IMG/VR virus record: IMGVR_UViG_3300038829_000108 | Location: 1 to 43,053 of that record | Origin: a virus | Length of the DNA: 43,053 bases | Reading direction: 5' to 3' (one strand) | Shown here: positions 4,055-15,903 of the stretch, in pieces | How positions within the stretch are numbered: position 1 is the first letter of the stretch | How the letters are laid out: every line of letters starts with the position of its first letter | Translations under genes and position numbers: made by a program | Notes under the pieces: generated by a model | What the model was told of the DNA's origin: nothing | The model's database searches: none | What the model saw: only the letters and a program-made list of their open reading frames with translations

Positions 4055-4101
4055 CCCTCCCCCATTTCAAAGACCGAAATGGGGGAGGGCAGGGTCAGGG
4101 T
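4055..4101 (-). repeat. Stem-loop element, copy E (degenerate tail)
   Basis: CCCTCCCCCATTTC-7nt-GAAATGGGGGAGGG, then CAGGGTCAGGGT. It abuts the stop at 4102. Confidence 0.75.
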
Positions 4102-8822: not shown

Positions 8823-10360
8823 TGGATTGTGCTCTTCCTACGTTTGCCGATCATTTCCAGCAACTTGTGATACGCGCTCGAAGCTGCATCCACCTGGTCA
8901 TCATTGCGCCCGCGTGGAAACGCAAGACACTCTTCGATGAAGGCCTGATTCCATGCGCCCTGCAATAGAATTGCAAGCCCGCCTTGAAACGCAGATTCAA
9001 GGTCTGACGAACGTGTTTCCTTATCGCCGCTCACAGTCTCAAACTTTGCGGGAAATCCCATCAATAGGCGGTTGGTAGCCTCTGCCGAATCCTTGCCCGC
9101 CGAGCCTGGGTCTTGCTGGTGCCAAATGAAAACCTTGCCGTATTGCTCTCGATCGGTTTCAGACGTCTTCTTCATTTTCTGATCCCGCTCGTATGATGTG
9201 CCGCGTATACGCACGACATCGAGAATATAGAAATATCCGTCTGAGCAATACGCCATCAAAACGCCCGCAGTGAAATCGCCAGTGGATGAGTTCGCCTTGT
9301 CCCAATATCGCAAGACGAAAAGGATATTCACATCTTCAGGCAGTTTGGCAATTTTCCTGAACCATTCACGCTTGTATTTCTGACCCGCTTTCGGGTATGG
9401 CAATTGCTGATAAAGTGCGTTGAAAAAATAATCGTCTGACGTTTCTTTGACCTTCAGCATTTCATCGCGCGTCATAATTGCAGGACAAAGCACGTCTCCT
9501 GGCTCGCGCCCCAACGGGTCCTTCATAGGCAGATAAACGCCATCCAGCATTTTTGCGTGTTGCTCTTCGAGTGATACTGCGTATTCAGATTGATCCAGGG
9601 CAAAGCCAGGCAGGGCAATGATCGTCCATTGCTTGGCTTTACGATTGCTGATCATCAGCTTCATGAATCTGCCCGCTGGGTCGTCTGGGTGCCAGTGGGT
9701 CATGACCAGTACCATCGCCTTTGCGCGCGGCACTACAGATGATCTCAGCCAATCCCAAATATCGTCGCGTGTGGCTTCGCTTTCAGCTTCGCGGTAATCT
9801 TTGATTAAGTCATCCAGAATGACCAGACCCTTTGCCCGTCCTGTGAATGCGCCGCCCACACCCGTTGCGATCATCCCGCCTCGGTTTGGTTTGGCAAGAT
9901 CCCACTTTGAAGTTGCGCGTGAGTCGGAGGACAAACGCACAGGCTCGTCTGAAGCGGAGAATTTTCCAAACACAGCCTGGTATCCCGATGAGGTCACAAT
10001 ATTTCTTACCTCGCGGCTGTTATCGGTGGATAAATCCGCGCCATACGATCCCATCAAAATACGCAGGTTCGGCAGCTTGCCCAAGGCGAACGATGGAAAA
10101 ACATTTGAGACCGTTACAGATTTTCCATGTTGCGGAGGCGTCAAGATCATTAAGTTCTCAATGCCTTCCTTGGTATCGCCTGCAAGGAACTTCAATACCT
10201 GCTCGCAGTAATAGGCAATGTAACGGTGCATGTCGTAGGCGCGATACCAATCAGGATAGATATATTCGCCGAAGGACGCCATATCTTCACTGGCAAGCGT
10301 GCGCCCCGCCGCCTCTTCCAGGAATTGCTGCTGGTCAAATTGCAGGAAGGCATTATTCAT
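8819..10360 (-). CDS. terL: Terminase large subunit
   Basis: Walker A-like PPQHGKS, Walker B LVILDDL, and THWHPDDPAGRF motifs, with a C-terminal nuclease half. Confidence 0.9.
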   Translation of the reverse strand: MNNAFLQFDQQQFLEEAAGRTLASEDMASFGEYIYPDWYRAYDMHRYIAYYCEQVLKFLAGDTKEGIENLMILTPPQHGKSVTVSNVFPSFALGKLPNLRILMGSYGADLSTDNSREVRNIVTSSGYQAVFGKFSASDEPVRLSSDSRATSKWDLAKPNRGGMIATGVGGAFTGRAKGLVILDDLIKDYREAESEATRDDIWDWLRSSVVPRAKAMVLVMTHWHPDDPAGRFMKLMISNRKAKQWTIIALPGFALDQSEYAVSLEEQHAKMLDGVYLPMKDPLGREPGDVLCPAIMTRDEMLKVKETSDDYFFNALYQQLPYPKAGQKYKREWFRKIAKLPEDVNILFVLRYWDKANSSTGDFTAGVLMAYCSDGYFYILDVVRIRGTSYERDQKMKKTSETDREQYGKVFIWHQQDPGSAGKDSAEATNRLLMGFPAKFETVSGDKETRSSDLESAFQGGLAILLQGAWNQAFIEECLAFPRGRNDDQVDAASSAYHKLLEMIGKRRKSTIQ

Positions 10361-11126
10361 TGTCCCCGCCTTCCCGATCCTCTTTTATTTCTTCAGCCAT
10401 GGTTTTTGCGTCTGCAAGTACATCGCTAAATATCTGTGTTGTATCCAGTGCCTGCAATGCTTCCTGTTCTTTGCGATCTTTTTCAATTTTCGCTTTGAAC
10501 TCGGAGATTTTTTCGGGTGTGTCCACGCCAGCCAACGAGAGCAATTTACCAAACGGAATACTTTTCAAAACTTCGTCCAGGTTCCCGCCCTCAGCGGTCA
10601 AATCAATTTCCGAGCGGTCCTTTAATACACCTGCAAGTTTGAAATGTAATTCGCGGTCATACTTGCCTTTGTAGTTGTCTTGCGCCGCCACGGTATACAT
10701 GGCTTCCAAACTATCTGGCAGACGTTCAATCGCGCTTTTCTTCCAGACCTCCCCCACCATCGCATCAATACCAGGGTTTTTTGCGCGCCACACGCTGAAC
10801 TGACGGTCACTGCTCATGCCAAGTAAATTCGCAAGTTGATCCTGTGTCTTCGGCCAACGGTGCTTCTTCGGCGTCCCCAGCCACATGATCAAAGCGGCAA
10901 CACGGAACGGCCATCGTCCAACGCGCAATGACAAATACAACTCAAATAAATAGGGCGCGATCCTTTTGCCCTGCGGATCAAGCTCCCAGATCGCTCCGCT
11001 CTCAAATTCCTTGCGTGCCACCTCTTCTCGAGTACGAACCTCATCCGCGCTTAAAGCAGAATTAGACTCTTCTTCGGGAAGGTCAAGGTTGAGCATGAGT
11101 TGATACGAAGGAACTGTAATAGGCAT
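10353..11126 (-). CDS. terS: Terminase small subunit (HTH)
   Basis: 257 aa directly upstream of and overlapping terL. HTH region KTQDQLANLLGMSSDRQFSVWR. Confidence 0.7.
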   Translation of the reverse strand: MPITVPSYQLMLNLDLPEEESNSALSADEVRTREEVARKEFESGAIWELDPQGKRIAPYLFELYLSLRVGRWPFRVAALIMWLGTPKKHRWPKTQDQLANLLGMSSDRQFSVWRAKNPGIDAMVGEVWKKSAIERLPDSLEAMYTVAAQDNYKGKYDRELHFKLAGVLKDRSEIDLTAEGGNLDEVLKSIPFGKLLSLAGVDTPEKISEFKAKIEKDRKEQEALQALDTTQIFSDVLADAKTMAEEIKEDREGGDNE

Positions 11127-11471: not shown

Positions 11472-11960
11472 TTATTTATTTTTACGAGCCGCAATCGTGC
11501 CGCTGGCTGCATCGGGTAATGTAATCCATCCAGCCTTGATAGCCAGACCGTCAAAGACGCGCTTGAGAAGTACGTTGTAGATGAGTGTTGCGAATGATGT
11601 AGGGACAGCCAATGCAACCAGCAACGAACTGACGAAGCCGAAGAACGCGCTCACGAATGTCACAGGGTCGGTGAATGCAGGAAATGCAGGAATCGCCACG
11701 CCGCCCCAGTACACTGCCAGAATAAGTGACACGCCATACAAAAGCACGGTAAGCCATTCACGCTTCACCTCGATCTGCGGCCAGCGGTCCATCACGATCT
11801 TGAGCGCGTATAGAATCGCCGAGGCAAACAAACCGATCACATACAACTGCACGGCATCGGTTACAGCAACGGGCGGCGCTTCACCCTGCGCGAATGCAGG
11901 CATCACAAAAAATGCCGAAACAAACAGAACAACGAGTAAAACAAAAAAAATCTTTTTCAT
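11472..11960 (-). CDS. Multi-pass membrane protein with signal peptide (holin-like candidate)
   Basis: ATG at 11960 follows AAGGAG. It starts MKKIFFVLLVVLFVSAFFVMPAFA and has at least 3 further TM segments. It is the first gene after the late terminator. Confidence 0.6.
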   Translation of the reverse strand: MKKIFFVLLVVLFVSAFFVMPAFAQGEAPPVAVTDAVQLYVIGLFASAILYALKIVMDRWPQIEVKREWLTVLLYGVSLILAVYWGGVAIPAFPAFTDPVTFVSAFFGFVSSLLVALAVPTSFATLIYNVLLKRVFDGLAIKAGWITLPDAASGTIAARKNK

Positions 11961-11990
11961 CGTACAAATCTCCTTTTTGAAATAGATAAC

Positions 11991-12032
11991 AAAAAAAGCG
12001 CCCGACACCTCCCGAAGGGGAGTGTCGAGCGC
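11991..12032 (-). terminator. Rho-independent terminator between the late promoter and the late genes
   Basis: Minus sense reads GCGCTCGACACTCCC-CTTC-GGGAGGTGTCGGGCGC followed by TTTTTTT. Confidence 0.85.
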
Positions 12033-12048
12033 CTCTCAACCAATTTTT

Positions 12049-12083
12049 TGTGACTGCCAGAATCCTTGCGGATTGCTGTCACA
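12049..12083 (-). other. Structured leader stem-loop with GNRA (GCAA) tetraloop
   Basis: Minus sense reads TGTGACAGC..AATCC-GCAA-GGATT..GGCAGTCACA. It lies between the promoter at 12107-12134 and the terminator. Confidence 0.55.
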
Positions 12084-12106
12084 GCAGAATATTTATTTGT
12101 AGATAA

Positions 12107-12134
12107 ATTTTAACATTAAATGAGTCAATGTCAA
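12107..12134 (-). promoter_or_regulatory. Sigma70-type promoter (late, proximal)
   Basis: TTGACA (12134-12129), 16-nt spacer, TGT-TAAAAT extended -10 (12112-12107). Confidence 0.7.
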
Positions 12135-12150
12135 GATTTTAATTAAAGCA

Positions 12151-12189
12151 CAAACGCCACGGCCTGAGGGGGGCAGGTCATGGCGTTTG
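12151..12189 (-). terminator. Stem-loop with a weak T-rich tail after the distal promoter (possible terminator or attenuator)
   Basis: 9-bp stem CAAACGCCA/TGGCGTTTG enclosing an inner 6-bp stem, followed on the minus sense by TGCTTTAATT. Confidence 0.45.
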
Positions 12190-12197
12190 CAAGTCGA

Positions 12198-12225
12198 ATT
12201 ATAGAATCTTTTCGTAAATTGTCAA
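12198..12225 (-). promoter_or_regulatory. Sigma70 consensus promoter (late, distal)
   Basis: TTGACA (12225-12220), 16-nt spacer, TATAAT (12203-12198). It overlaps the stop codon of the 71-aa gene. Confidence 0.7.
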
Positions 12226-12774: not shown

Positions 12775-14025
12775 TCAAGCCATTTGTGTTGATAAAAGAA
12801 CTGGCGTTTGTCCGCTGAACTGCGCCCATCTTTCAATCGTCACTGCCGCGTAGATCGTATCCAACTCCACTGCCCTGCATCGCCTCCCGAGTTGCTCACA
12901 GACAATTAAAGTTGTCCCGCTCCCAACAAATGGGTCAATCACTATATCGCCAGGCAAGCTCGAATTATTCAGCGATCTCTCCACCAGCGGAAGCGGCTTC
13001 ATGGTTGGATGATCGTCACTGCGCTTCGGTCTATCTATTTGCCAAACATCTGATTGTTTGCGGTCTGTAACTTCTCGCACTCGTGAAGCGTCGCTTTTCC
13101 ATCCATACCAGAGCGGCTCGAATTGCGTATGATAGTCTTTGCGTGAAAGCACAAGTTGATCCTTCATCCAAATGATCGTACTTGACCAATGGAAGCCTTT
13201 ATCCCTCAAGACCTTGTCAATCACGGGCCACTCCTGCGCGCTCATTGCCAAATAGATCAACGCGCCTGGCTCGCAAGCATTCCAAATACTATTCACTGCC
13301 GCGCGCATGAACTCAGGAAATTTCTCTCCCAAATTATCGTTTTTCATTGTTCGTTTTTTATAACCCTGAGGGTTATCTTTTTCAATGTGCCCGCCATAAT
13401 CCACATTCCATGGCGGATCAGTCCAGCAAATCTGCGCTTTCTCTCCCTGCATCAATTTATCCATCACGCTTTCATCTGTGCAATCTCCAACAAATAACCG
13501 ATGATTTCCCAACGTCCACAATTGACCTTCTTCCACTTTCCATTTCTGAACCAATTCATCGGCTTGATCCATAAGTTCAGCAGGATCGGCGGTTTCCTCC
13601 TGTATATTTGCATCCGCCTGAAGAAGTAACTTCTGCAATTCCTTGTCCAGAAAACCGAGCGAATCAAAATCCAGACCAAGCGCAGCATCCTGCGCGATCA
13701 CATCCGCGTCCCACTCCAAATCAATTTCAGCCACGCGATTATCAAGGTATGCCAATCGTCGCGCCTCACCTGCAGAGTCTTCAAGATCTAAATCCTGACG
13801 CTGAACGACAACGAGTTCATCCCGATTGGTTGGAATGATCCGCACCTTCATTCCCGCCTTCCTCGCCGCCTCCAACGTCTTATTACCAGCAATCACATGC
13901 CCATCTTTATCCACCAGGATGGATCGCCCTGCTCCCAATTCCTTTATGGATTGCTCAAGCAGTTCTCTTCCGCGCCCTGTGCCTTTATTCGCATTGTGAT
14001 TGTCATATTGTAAATTGTCACTCAT
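12775..14025 (-). CDS. ParB-N domain fused to a beta-class DNA methyltransferase (DPPW, likely N6-adenine)
   Basis: ATG at 14025 overlaps the upstream TGA (ATGA) after GGAGGA. The ParB-like N-domain contains GRSILVDKDGHVIAGNKTLEAARKAG. Motif IV is TDPPW and precedes motif I IDPFVGSGTT. Confidence 0.85.
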   Translation of the reverse strand: MSDNLQYDNHNANKGTGRGRELLEQSIKELGAGRSILVDKDGHVIAGNKTLEAARKAGMKVRIIPTNRDELVVVQRQDLDLEDSAGEARRLAYLDNRVAEIDLEWDADVIAQDAALGLDFDSLGFLDKELQKLLLQADANIQEETADPAELMDQADELVQKWKVEEGQLWTLGNHRLFVGDCTDESVMDKLMQGEKAQICWTDPPWNVDYGGHIEKDNPQGYKKRTMKNDNLGEKFPEFMRAAVNSIWNACEPGALIYLAMSAQEWPVIDKVLRDKGFHWSSTIIWMKDQLVLSRKDYHTQFEPLWYGWKSDASRVREVTDRKQSDVWQIDRPKRSDDHPTMKPLPLVERSLNNSSLPGDIVIDPFVGSGTTLIVCEQLGRRCRAVELDTIYAAVTIERWAQFSGQTPVLLSTQMA

Positions 14026-15416
14026 ACATCCTCCGCTAATATCGGGTTTTTGCCCGTCAATAAATACCACCTCTCTAATGTAGCCGCCACATATTTGGGC
14101 AACAGTTCACTGCCATAACAAATTCTGCCCATCACCTCGCAGGCGATCAACGTTGTCCCGCTTCCGCAGAATGGCTCAAAGACGATCTCGCCGCGCTTTG
14201 TATAAAGCATCAAATGACGGATTGGCAACTCCAACGGAAACGCCGCCTCATGTCCGTTTGACCTGGCATTGCCTTTTATATCGTCCCAATATGCGCGCAG
14301 CGCCCACGTTGTTCCCGTCCATTCCTGCCCGCGTTGTTTTCCTTGTTTATGATAAAAAGTCAAAAGACTCTGCACATCGTCTTCGCGCACAGCATCTTCA
14401 AATTTCATCGTCTGACCTTCAGCGTGTTCGTATGTCCCTAAAAATTCACAATGCTGATCTATCACATCCGCCCTGGGCGATGTACTCATCAATTGTCCCT
14501 CCTTCAGCCAATGACGTACATGCCGCAAATTCCAACCGCGAGATCTCAAATCATTTGTCCACTGGTCAATCAATAGCAATACATGCCGCTTTGCCTTCTT
14601 GTCGAATGCGGTTGTAAATCCAGTGCCCGTATTGATCACAATTCTACTTTCGTCTCTCCGCGTTACTGCGTCAATCACGCCGCATATTTGTTCAATGAAT
14701 TCTGAAATCTGTTCTTCGCTCGTCTGTGTTTCATATCCCTTGCCCACCCAATAAGGCGGACTGGTAAAGGTCAAAGCCGCCTTGTCGCTTCCCATCAGAC
14801 GATCCATGTTCCCCATGTCAGTTGCATCTCCGCAGATCAACCGATGGTTTCCCATCTTCCATACCTGTCCCACCTCCACGCCCCATTTGACGGTCAGCTC
14901 GTCGCCCTTTTCGCTCTGGTCACCTGGGTCTTTTCCTGCTTCATCCCCAATTCCAGCCTGATCCAGCAACTGGCGCAACTCCCCCTCGAGGAAACCAACC
15001 CCATCAAGTTCAAGACCTGCCGCCATATCGTCAGCCAATTGCTCTGCATCCCAATTCAAGTCCAATTCACTCACGCGATTATCCATGTATGCCAGGCGTC
15101 GAGCTTCACCAGATGAATCATTCAGATCCAGATCAGTTCGTTGAACAGCGACCAGCTCATCCCGTCCCGCCTGAACGATACGGACTTTCAACCCTGCCTC
15201 CTGCGCCGCATCGAATGTCTTATTGCCAGCGATCAACTTTCCATTCTTATCCAACAGGACAGAACGTCCGCCTCCCAGCTCGCGCACCGACTGAGTCAAA
15301 AGTTTCTTGCCGCGCTCCGTGCCTTTATTGGCATTATGTTCATCGTGAGTGATTTCCCCCTCTCCATTTGTACTCAAATGGGGAGGGGTCAGGGGTGGGG
15401 TCGGGTTATTCGTCAT
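14022..15416 (-). CDS. ParB-N domain fused to a beta-class DNA methyltransferase (SPPY, likely N4-cytosine)
   Basis: The N-domain is paralogous to the downstream gene. Motif IV is TSPPY and motif I is FEPFCGSGTT. The first ~20 codons are encoded by repeat element H. Confidence 0.8.
   Translation of the reverse strand: MTNNPTPPLTPPHLSTNGEGEITHDEHNANKGTERGKKLLTQSVRELGGGRSVLLDKNGKLIAGNKTFDAAQEAGLKVRIVQAGRDELVAVQRTDLDLNDSSGEARRLAYMDNRVSELDLNWDAEQLADDMAAGLELDGVGFLEGELRQLLDQAGIGDEAGKDPGDQSEKGDELTVKWGVEVGQVWKMGNHRLICGDATDMGNMDRLMGSDKAALTFTSPPYWVGKGYETQTSEEQISEFIEQICGVIDAVTRRDESRIVINTGTGFTTAFDKKAKRHVLLLIDQWTNDLRSRGWNLRHVRHWLKEGQLMSTSPRADVIDQHCEFLGTYEHAEGQTMKFEDAVREDDVQSLLTFYHKQGKQRGQEWTGTTWALRAYWDDIKGNARSNGHEAAFPLELPIRHLMLYTKRGEIVFEPFCGSGTTLIACEVMGRICYGSELLPKYVAATLERWYLLTGKNPILAEDV
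15357..15406 (-). repeat. Stem-loop element, copy H (inside the methyltransferase N-terminal codons)
   Basis: CCCCTCTCCATTTG-TACT-CAAATGGGGAGGGG, then TCAGGGGTGGGGTCGGGT. It abuts the TerS-like stop at 15406. Confidence 0.75.
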
Positions 15417-15903
15417 CGTCTAAATCTCCCATCAACTTCAATGCCATCTTGCGGTCTTGATGACTCTTCGCATCAGGCTTCACAGCCACAGCCACCATCG
15501 CAGTAATGATCTCTGCGCGATGTTTCCACAAAGGACTCCCCTGTAGTTTATGCACCATCTGATCAATCAAAGGATTTTTATTGCGCCATGTGACGATTGC
15601 TCGATCACTTGAAAGTCCCAGGTGAAAGCGCGCAAGCTCATCTTGTGTTTTGGGTTCTCTTCCCCCTTTGGGCGTCGAAGCCCATGCAATGTACGCCGCA
15701 ACCCTCCAGGGCCATCCGCCCTTATACAACTCCAGATAATCTTCCAACCAGCGCGGAGCGCCAGCCCTGCCATACAACAACTCAAGAGCCTTGCGTGCAA
15801 CATTGCTCTTCTCTTTTGCATCCTCAGGTGATTGTGATTCATCTTCTGGTTCTGCAATGTCCAGATTCAACGACAACTGATAAACAGGTTTTACGATTGG
15901 CAT
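15406..15903 (-). CDS. TerS-like HTH protein (paralog of the terminase small subunit)
   Basis: 165 aa. It shares MPI-P-YQL-LNLD, WP-RVAA and PKTQD-LA..LG-SSDR..WR-KNP-ID-MV with ORF 10353..11126. Confidence 0.7.
   Translation of the reverse strand: MPIVKPVYQLSLNLDIAEPEDESQSPEDAKEKSNVARKALELLYGRAGAPRWLEDYLELYKGGWPWRVAAYIAWASTPKGGREPKTQDELARFHLGLSSDRAIVTWRNKNPLIDQMVHKLQGSPLWKHRAEIITAMVAVAVKPDAKSHQDRKMALKLMGDLDDDE

Follow-up and report, generated by a model that had tools for sequence, protein, structure and literature searches.

The virus record IMGVR_UViG_3300038829_000108 from IMG/VR, studied here over its 43,053 nucleotides (nt; this whole stretch is referred to as the window), derives from a temperate phage whose lysis, packaging and structural genes are preceded, on the minus strand, by a control region (12225-11991) made of two separately conserved RNA modules. 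The upstream module (12225-12141) consists of promoter P1 and a hairpin, hp1, and the downstream one, the late leader (12134-11991), of promoter P2, a GCWG motif, hairpin P1, hairpin P2 and a terminator, T. We propose, giving it about an even chance, that the late leader as a whole is a factor-dependent transcription attenuator, in which a protein would decide between hairpin P2 and T. A previous sequence-only reading of the interval had described two consensus promoters, two stem-loops and a strong terminator as a late control region; all of these elements were found on the minus strand where it had placed them, far beyond chance, and many related phages keep the promoter-terminator layout before a holin-like gene, TerS and TerL. 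The sizes that it gave for the short RNAs, about 45 and 105 nt, agree with those predicted here, ~45-50 nt for hp1 and ~105-108 nt for the leader.

The late leader and its competing folds

The late promoter, promoter P2, is composed of TTGACA (12134-12129), a 16-nt spacer and TGtTAAAAT (12115-12107), corresponding to 11/12 consensus positions with an extended -10, and a -10 of the TGTTAAAAT type is kept ahead of the leader in relatives. The pattern TTGACA-N16-18-TAWAAT occurs at 3 sites in the 43-kb window vs 0.01 expected, promoters P1 and P2 being two of them. The 208-nt region folds at -79.7 kcal/mol (z = -7.0) and the 111-nt leader at -47.5 kcal/mol (z = -5.8), and in neither case was any shuffled sequence as good; taken together, the excess of promoter sites and these folds exclude a chance origin. 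From a predicted start near 12100, the 5' part of the leader (12100-12049) comprises GCUG (12085-12082) and hairpin P1 (12083-12049), both placed by the fold. Terminator T (12037-11991, -32.4 kcal/mol) has a core stem at 12032-11998 with a UUCG-type loop, followed by a U7 tract at 11997-11991, and this GC-rich hairpin directly before a U-tract corresponds to an intrinsic (Rho-independent) terminator. It was not called by a simple terminator scan and was revealed by fold and covariation. The gap between the U-tract and the start of the first late gene is 30 nt. A consensus promoter which leads straight into a strong terminator before a holin-like gene would imply regulated read-through and short terminated RNAs.

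The comparison covered viral and prophage relatives at about 150 loci (designated by L numbers). Among those encoding the first late protein, the upstream regions are strikingly alike, and a leader pattern derived from the terminator box (GAGATRAGCGCC...GGCGCTTTTT) matched 41 IMG/VR contigs, nearly all of which also carry features not forced by the pattern, namely a sigma-70-type promoter, GCWG and a hairpin. The same pattern matched 23 genome contigs; a complete leader was present in metagenome-assembled genomes of Chloroflexi/Anaerolineales (L057, L062, L067 and L072), and the genome contigs without it look like chance terminators. The hosts of the related loci are apparently Chloroflexota/Anaerolineales. 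A covariance model (R1), built from an alignment of 27 leaders, found a single significant site in the window (11990-12074, 22.1 bits, E = 1.2e-4) and 85 sites in 78 of the related loci. The window leader is a divergent member, with GAGAGGCGCU in place of GAGAUGAGCGCC. Several phages (L034, L047, L111, L112, L120, L004, L072 and L141) possess two leader copies on the same strand, each before a different gene block, and the genes that follow leaders mostly encode small membrane or holin-like proteins, then terminase.

GCWG followed by a hairpin is found in essentially all leaders, at a spacing which varies from 4 to 20 nt past the -10. Hairpin P1 exists with two types of loop. The first has a 7-bp stem capped by a YGYAGN hexaloop and covaries (96.7% paired, compensatory changes at 6/7 pairs); the second, to which the window belongs, has an interrupted stem with an AGCA/GGCG internal loop (AGCA/GGCA in the window). 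The GNRA-capped stem-loop which the sequence-only reading had singled out is not conserved as such, its tip (GCAA-capped in the window, 12073-12062) being a variable, optional insertion in the conserved hairpin P1. The MAFFT alignment of the 27 leaders shows a terminator with 95% pairing and compensatory changes at 8/13 pairs. A long-range helix between GCWG and the distal terminator arm was considered and rejected, as it amounted to 3.81 bp vs 4.00 in permutations.

Hairpin P2 (12040-12024, GUUGAG-AGGCG-CUCGAC) was identified through the nascent fold and covariation. Just 5' of a purine-rich box, 3-6 nt pair with the first nucleotides of the T 5' arm after the box, and the box is therefore the loop of hairpin P2, whose stem has 4-7 bp across the family and whose loop is conserved and purine-rich, with a length of 5-12 nt between subfamilies. 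The 27 leaders had been selected independently of hairpin P2; 25-26/27 of them form the three pairs nearest the loop, through GC, CG, AU and UA, and the covariation reaches 0.84 vs 0.23 in shuffled alignments (0/500 as high) and at most 0.24 in slid controls; it holds on 81 sequences. When the upstream and downstream halves were permuted among loci, the helix measured 4.30 ± 0.12 bp, with a maximum of 4.68 in 2000 trials, vs 5.0 bp for the natural combinations. Since the 3' strand of hairpin P2 (12029-12024) belongs to the 5' arm of T, the two structures are mutually exclusive. Transcripts ending before the 3' arm of T fold as hairpins P1 and P2 and full-length transcripts fold as T, the energies in the window being -6.4 kcal/mol for hairpin P2 vs -32.4 kcal/mol for T.

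A weak hairpin with a conserved loop that folds before a very strong terminator and has one strand in common with it points to anti-termination stabilised by a factor. In the mechanism that we propose, for which the transcription starts, the termination efficiency and the anti-terminator role of hairpin P2 are predicted, promoter P2 probably fires without an activator because it is near-consensus. The nascent RNA would make hairpin P1, with GCWG before it, then the small hairpin P2 with its purine-rich loop. By default, the far more stable T would displace hairpin P2, so that transcription would stop at the U7 tract with the release of a ~105-nt RNA. A trans-acting factor bound to the loops of hairpins P1 and P2 would allow hairpin P2 to persist; T could then not form, and the polymerase would read into the holin-like gene, the terminase and the structural genes. 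Tight termination by default would make biological sense, because the downstream genes are holin-like, then terminase.

A zinc-ribbon protein as candidate factor

All-against-all BLAST of the flanking open reading frames (ORFs) gave no upstream family common to all leader loci. Small CxxC/CxxH...CxxC ORFs, spotted by eye directly before the promoter in diverse loci, were used to build a hidden Markov model (HMM), which recovered the family in many loci and, in the window, a 107-amino-acid (aa) zinc-ribbon protein (17729-17406, minus strand) with C16...H22 and C78-x2-C81. Its gene is one of the last in the replication/early block and precedes the leader by 5.3 kb, on the same strand. The family is encoded upstream on the same strand for 41/83 leaders, at distances from 12 nt to 7.2 kb, and never downstream or on the opposite strand; most of the leaders without a family member have <4 kb of upstream sequence. 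Reciprocally, when loci were fetched via the zinc-ribbon protein alone, a leader followed on the same strand in 17-18/23 of them. Loci fetched via hp1 constitute a sample independent of both partners, and there the protein was found in 10/27 leader-positive vs 0/24 leader-negative loci (p = 8e-4); with a strict model threshold the figures were 9/24 vs 1/27 (p = 0.004). The subfamilies of the protein also correspond to types of P2 loop. The window-like subfamily (window, L001, L150 and L152) goes with the short loops GAGGCGC, AGAGCG and UAGAGCG, the L116/L120 subfamily with AGUGAUGCGC, and most remaining zinc-ribbon proteins with AGAUGAGCGC. In phages with two leaders, we also noticed that the zinc-ribbon gene often stands immediately before the first copy.

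Database searches did not attach the protein to a described family. Pfam, searched with six family members at E <= 1, returned only insignificant zinc-ribbon noise, PHROGs and NCBIfam gave no match, and in the PDB the model had no fold neighbour (best E = 1.4). The best PDB entry by sequence was yippee-like 5 (E = 0.92); the resemblance to yippee/beta-tent proteins is not significant (E = 0.92; PF24046, E = 0.23) and is a lead only. By sequence and fold (Pfam, PDB), the protein belongs neither to the P2/P4 Ogr-Delta activators nor to Mu Com. One unnamed viral protein of BFVD matches the model (E = 3e-4), a word-indexed search gave 29 unnamed homologues, and a profile search of 1.84 billion representative proteins gave 151 clusters, with lengths of 75-136 aa throughout. 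In the AlphaFold model, the protein has a zinc ribbon and a mainly beta structure, with a predicted local distance difference test score (pLDDT) of 77.6.

From these associations, the 107-aa protein is the best candidate and the most likely factor, and its place among the last early genes would parallel that of lambda Q. That it is indeed the factor, if the leader works as an attenuator, we hold to be somewhat short of an even chance. It is preferred over the candidates put forward earlier. The 71-aa and 89-aa proteins were rejected as antiterminators, being tied to hp1 and not to the terminator, with no co-occurrence with the whole leader family. The TerS-like paralog was also discarded; it has its own LexA-box promoter and leader hairpin, and does not co-occur with the whole leader family either.

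The hp1 hairpin RNA and the surroundings of the control region

Promoter P1 agrees with the consensus at 12/12 positions (TTGACA at 12225-12220, 16 nt, TATAAT at 12203-12198), and its -35 overlaps the stop codon of the 71-aa gene. The hp1 hairpin (12190-12150), defined by its fold, has a stem at 12190-12174 / 12166-12150, which in the window consists of 12 bp plus 4 bp with an A/C mismatch, and a CCCCCCU loop at 12173-12167. It includes a near-invariant 11-mer, UGCCCCCCUCA, at 12175-12165, and is followed by the tail GCUUUAAUU (12149-12141), a weak U-tract (UUUAAUU) after a 16-bp stem. The distance from the promoter to the stem is always 7-9 nt, so that the transcript would start at the base of the hairpin.

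The search pattern TATAAT-N16-36-TGCCCCCCTCA matched 56 viral contigs, ~49 of which form the hairpin. In 39 in-register homologues, the stem, which varies from 14 to 19 bp in relatives and covaries, has 92.8% paired cells and compensatory changes at 14/17 pairs, with a covariation of 0.90 vs 0.22 shuffled; at the fifth pair, counted from the loop, an A/C mismatch recurs. As these homologues had been chosen for pairing and their loop was fixed by the search pattern, an unbiased sample was drawn through the 89-aa protein; the exact UGCCCCCCUCA hairpin occurs within 420 nt downstream in 26/39 of its loci, and 1-nt variants in 3 more. Promoter 1 and hairpin 1, which had been listed together with the leader in one late control region, constitute an independent module, as hp1 and the late leader are each found without the other among the related loci; where both occur, in the loci read, hp1 lies 100-200 nt upstream of the leader. 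Two hp1 modules are present in L159, L160 and L170.

The module is linked to a gene pair (12722-12222, minus strand) encoding an 89-aa protein (12722-12453, with an ORF extendable to 12836), which contains an HHWGHVGDL motif and matches phrog_14596 of unknown function, and a 71-aa protein (12437-12222). The two families were found in 17 and 12 loci, respectively, all with hp1, and in 0/86 loci without it. On the strand that they share with hp1, their genes stop 25-60 nt short of its loop in every case, including in L017 and L047, where no late leader follows. Inside the 71-aa gene (12393-12367, minus strand), at the LELEKLQ residues, lies a terminator-like hairpin with a U-tract (GCUGGAGCUGGAGAAGCUCCAGC UUUGUUUUUC), which is kept, with changed stem bases, in the homologues L002, L011, L158 and L164.

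A GAAC-N4-GTTC box (<=1 mismatch) occupies a fixed place in the spacer of 20/33 hp1 promoters of the unbiased set (L156-L193). We take this box to be the Gram-positive/Chloroflexi type of LexA operator (Cheo-type). None is present in promoters P1 and P2 of the window, and promoter P1 is thus of the minority type. LexA-type boxes with <=1 mismatch were also observed within 110 nt upstream of 23/77 leaders (among them L003, L007, L015, L022, L033 and L038) vs a background of 0.05 per 115 nt. With boxes both upstream of leaders and in hp1 promoters, host LexA may directly repress the late promoter and the hp1 promoter in many relatives.

On its predicted features, a strong promoter with a hairpin at about +7, hp1 would yield an RNA of ~45-50 nt displaying CCCCCCU in its loop, and the same hairpin would end the upstream 89-aa/71-aa operon. 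The promoter over the ORF end, the operon-ending hairpin and the unpaired C-rich loop suggest a small regulator or a protein-binding hairpin, and our best guess is that hp1, which appears to be an undescribed RNA family, would be a small regulatory RNA or protein-binding hairpin acting through its C-rich loop, SOS-induced in most relatives. RNAs with C-rich loops are known in Gram-positive bacteria (RsaE/RoxS, SprX and hairpin 14 of RNAIII), and DapZ and MicL are small RNAs (sRNAs) transcribed from a promoter inside the 3' end of an ORF whose terminator they share. Like the former, hp1 has an unpaired C-rich loop in a terminator hairpin and, like the latter, its promoter overlaps an upstream ORF end; it differs from all of them in being a bare hairpin of ~45-50 nt with no sequence relation to them and no target found. 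In the window, the pairing target GAGGGGGG occurs only as the antisense of hp1 itself. Most near-matches in relatives are the opposite strand of intergenic C-rich elements, and in the mRNA these elements run in the same sense as hp1. By inspection, the loop pairs with the leader box over at most 4 bp, and no clear correlation between hp1 and the intergenic C-rich elements was seen, the loci being short.

From ~30 kb down to position 1, all genes of the window are on the minus strand. The early part encodes, in this order, an integrase, a DnaG-type primase, a ParM-like protein, DUF5131 and the 107-aa ORF, followed by the TerS-like paralog, two ParB-methyltransferases, the 89-aa and 71-aa ORFs and the control region, past which come a 162-aa membrane protein, a 92-aa ORF, TerS-like, TerL and the portal. 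The first late gene (11960-11472, minus strand; ORF with a ribosome-binding site (RBS), ATG at 11960) encodes the 162-aa holin-like protein, with a signal-peptide-like N-terminus and predicted membrane segments. Its family comes after the leader in 19/41 loci, and the L152 homologue carries PF09682 (Phage_holin_6_1). The TerS-like protein (10353-11126) and its shorter paralog (15406-15903) have in common an N-terminal MPIxxPxYQLxLNLD...WP(F/W)RVAA region, and the tandem ParB-domain N6/N4 DNA methyltransferases (12775-14070 and 14022-15416) lie in the interval that separates the candidate regulator from the late control region.

The third consensus promoter of the window (16032-16004, minus strand; TTGACAAAATAGAACGAGCGTTCTAAAAT) contains in its spacer the only exact GAAC-N4-GTTC box of the window. 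About 7 nt past its -10 lies a long hairpin (15996-15955) with the loop GCGGGCCCGCUCC, followed by CAUUUAAG, the module spanning 16032-15947, and then come an RBS and the TerS-like paralog (15903-15406). A LexA-box promoter with a hairpin also precedes the paralog family in L001, L015, L076, L077, L081, L092, L153 and L154. Immediately ahead of the -35, consensus promoters in L005, L006, L007, L015, L019 and L082 carry a palindrome, TAACGCAAACCGTTA (TAACG-N5-CGTTA); in the window, on the minus strand, it is found at 16373-16358, after a 134-aa gene, and a degenerate copy, ACGCAAGCCGTTAG (~16047-16034), adjoins the LexA-box promoter. A phage regulator may possibly use the palindrome as its operator.

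Between the late genes, a repeated minus-strand intergenic element was observed at ~240-175, 985-925, 2285-2225, 2812-2745, 4607-4550 and 6775-6720, with a variant near 4087 and one further copy (29777-29715) at the start of the early block. It has the form ACCCCCUC, a small hairpin (UGCC-UUCG-GGCA), (A/C)UCUCCCCCAAAU...AUUUGGGGGAG(A/G) and then the RBS of the next gene. Because the G-run arm overlaps the Shine-Dalgarno region, the hairpin would sequester the latter. The 5' motif ACCCCCUC resembles the hp1 loop GCCCCCCUCA, and the element is also present in L007, L015, L078, L082, L110, L111 and L125.

Sensitive blastn of the control region against GenBank phages gave no relative at the DNA level. 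At gathering thresholds, Rfam 15 gave 0 matches over the whole window and only tRNAs in 12 related loci, and permissive Rfam searches with the window region and the canonical leader returned chance-level matches only, far below threshold. In the literature, both conserved sequences matched only unrelated primers, and searches for comparable phage systems yielded no description of this one. No match to the leader and hp1 motifs or to the candidate protein was found in Rfam, Pfam, PHROGs, NCBIfam or PDB, to which they are new.

Relation to known systems and alternative mechanisms

The RNA logic of the leader appears closest to that of the RAT/ANTAR attenuators, and fits Q/qut or put less well. 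In ribonucleic antiterminators (RAT), recognised by BglG, SacY and LicT, and in the dual hairpins bound by the ANTAR proteins EutV, AmiR and NasR, a protein stabilises an anti-terminator hairpin. The leader resembles both in having a weak hairpin with conserved loop residues whose 3' strand is the 5' strand of an intrinsic terminator, and resembles ANTAR targets in its two tandem hairpins (P1 and P2) before the terminator, hairpin P1 having a hexaloop in one subtype. In contrast with these systems, the neighbouring proteins scanned contain no CAT/PRD or ANTAR domain and there is no Rfam match, the loops are YGYAGN and AGAUGAGCGC with a P2 loop of 5-12 nt and not 6, and a phage late operon rather than a catabolic operon is concerned. 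Phage Mu Com is a small zinc-finger protein which activates translation by binding an mRNA hairpin and remodelling it. The candidate proposed here would likewise be a small phage zinc-binding protein which binds an RNA hairpin and changes a competing fold, but no sequence or fold similarity to Com was detectable, and Com acts on translation, not on read-through.

The sequence-only reading had likened the region to the lambdoid PR'-qut-tR' or to HK022 put. As regards the layout, this likeness stands, with a constitutive strong late promoter and a close strong intrinsic terminator before lysis and structural genes, a short RNA terminated by default and a candidate regulator upstream on the same strand in the early/replication block; put, too, is a phage RNA that lies close to its promoter, has two stem-loops and precedes terminators. 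It does not extend to the conserved features, which are RNA at a variable distance from the promoter, with hairpin P2 interlocked with T. Q, N and put act on the polymerase and need no terminator interlock, and put RNA does so in cis and processively, without being interlocked with a particular terminator. Q/qut relies on a DNA element bound by Q and a pause site, whereas RNA hairpins at a variable promoter distance are conserved here and the anti-terminator hairpin overlaps the terminator, which Q does not need; unlike put, the leader has a hairpin with one strand in the terminator and is accompanied by a conserved protein gene. The RNA features at variable promoter distance and the strand shared by hairpin P2 and T lead us to favour a terminator/anti-terminator switch over qut or put.

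A processive antitermination, in which a factor (Q/qut, AlpA or N/boxB-like) or the leader RNA (put-like) would modify the polymerase near the promoter, was nevertheless weighed, and we consider it unlikely. Hairpins P1 and P2 or hp1 would then be loading sites, the overlap of P2 and T would be incidental, and T and later terminators would be ignored. The layout, with its constitutive promoter, strong terminator, late genes and upstream regulator gene, is that of lambda PR'-tR', the conserved hairpin loops could be boxB-like tethering sites, and the late operon contains many further strong intergenic hairpins that a modified polymerase might need to pass. Moreover, in the window's subfamily, an A/T-rich -10-like TAAATAT in the initially transcribed region (~+6 to +12) could cause a sigma-dependent pause of the Q type. 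On the other side, the leader family as a whole has no conserved DNA site, and its conserved elements differ in their spacing from the promoter (GCWG 4-20 nt past the -10). The overlap of P2 and T is universal, with a P2 stem that covaries with the terminator arm, which the polymerase-modifying mechanism does not require, and hp1 and the leader occur independently. Among the proteins examined (11.1-29.3 kb), neither Pfam, PHROGs and NCBIfam nor the PDB fold search of the zinc-ribbon model gave a Q, N, AlpA, Ogr or NusG-like protein, in agreement with the earlier statement that no Q-like protein is recognisable. Selection for a helix that competes with the terminator is hard to explain if there is no regulated read-through and the promoter P1-hp1 and promoter P2-leader-T units are stand-alone sRNA genes or insulating terminators, the late genes being served by another promoter or basal leakage and hairpin P2 mattering only for the biogenesis or function of the free RNA. 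Both units do have the promoter-hairpin-U-tract form of sRNA genes, hp1 clearly exists apart from late operons, and short RNAs that start at a phage late promoter and are then terminated may have regulatory roles, as exemplified by StxS, a by-product RNA of lambdoid late control which is a regulator in its own right (PMC7547250). However, T and the first late gene have no further promoter-like site between them, a first late gene immediately follows the leader in nearly all loci, and some phages have two leaders with an operon after each, all of which makes this explanation improbable. The same architecture of terminator and anti-terminator, with ~25-30 conserved nucleotides, no universal neighbouring protein gene and no zinc-ribbon gene in the available sequence of some leader loci, could also suit a riboswitch, where hairpins P1 and P2 and the conserved single-stranded nucleotides would form an aptamer for a small molecule or ion which stabilises hairpin P2 and turns late transcription on. 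But the conservation sits in two hairpin loops and not in a multi-helix junction, the P1 loop is of two unrelated types and that of hairpin P2 differs in length from one subfamily to another, unlike a ligand pocket, the loop type tracks the protein subfamily, and no Rfam riboswitch matched, so that we regard a riboswitch as very improbable.

Several observations also weigh against the factor-dependent attenuator, in addition to the TAAATAT element mentioned above. Hairpin P2 is short and far weaker than T, and may matter only kinetically. The window copy is divergent (22 bits), with a P2 loop of 5-7 nt rather than 10 nt. The link between protein and RNA is associative, and shared ancestry or conserved gene order could explain part of it; no family member was detectable in L017, L026, L034, L028, L024 and L012 in spite of >4.5 kb of upstream sequence, L012 having only a divergent CxxC...CxxC ORF. 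The zinc-ribbon protein has no recognisable RNA-binding domain, and the confidence of its model is moderate (pLDDT 77.6). As for hp1, the invariance of its loop in the large set is partly forced by the search pattern, a concern of which the unbiased set removes most, not all. A joint reading, in which the zinc-ribbon protein would hold the anti-terminator closed against T via the two nascent hairpin loops and an SOS-induced hp1 RNA would act in trans through its invariant C-rich loop, for example on the G-rich Shine-Dalgarno-sequestering hairpins between late genes, appears rather doubtful; it would define a new class of phage antiterminators whose target is the RNA structure and not the polymerase.

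The timing of late gene expression is mechanistically understood for few model phages only, through Q, N, put, late activators and phage sigma factors. A large group of uncultured temperate phages appears to use instead a terminator/anti-terminator RNA switch placed before the holin and terminase genes. If this is true, the zinc-ribbon proteins would represent a new antiterminator family, and the late leader and the C-loop hairpin would add at least two new RNA families. The leader would also provide a sequence signature for the early/late boundary in metagenomic phage contigs, and host LexA would be linked directly to phage late and small-RNA promoters in Chloroflexota. Since the parts, a consensus promoter, an 85-nt switch and a 100-aa protein, are compact and modular, they can be tested directly in vitro and are potentially useful as orthogonal regulators.

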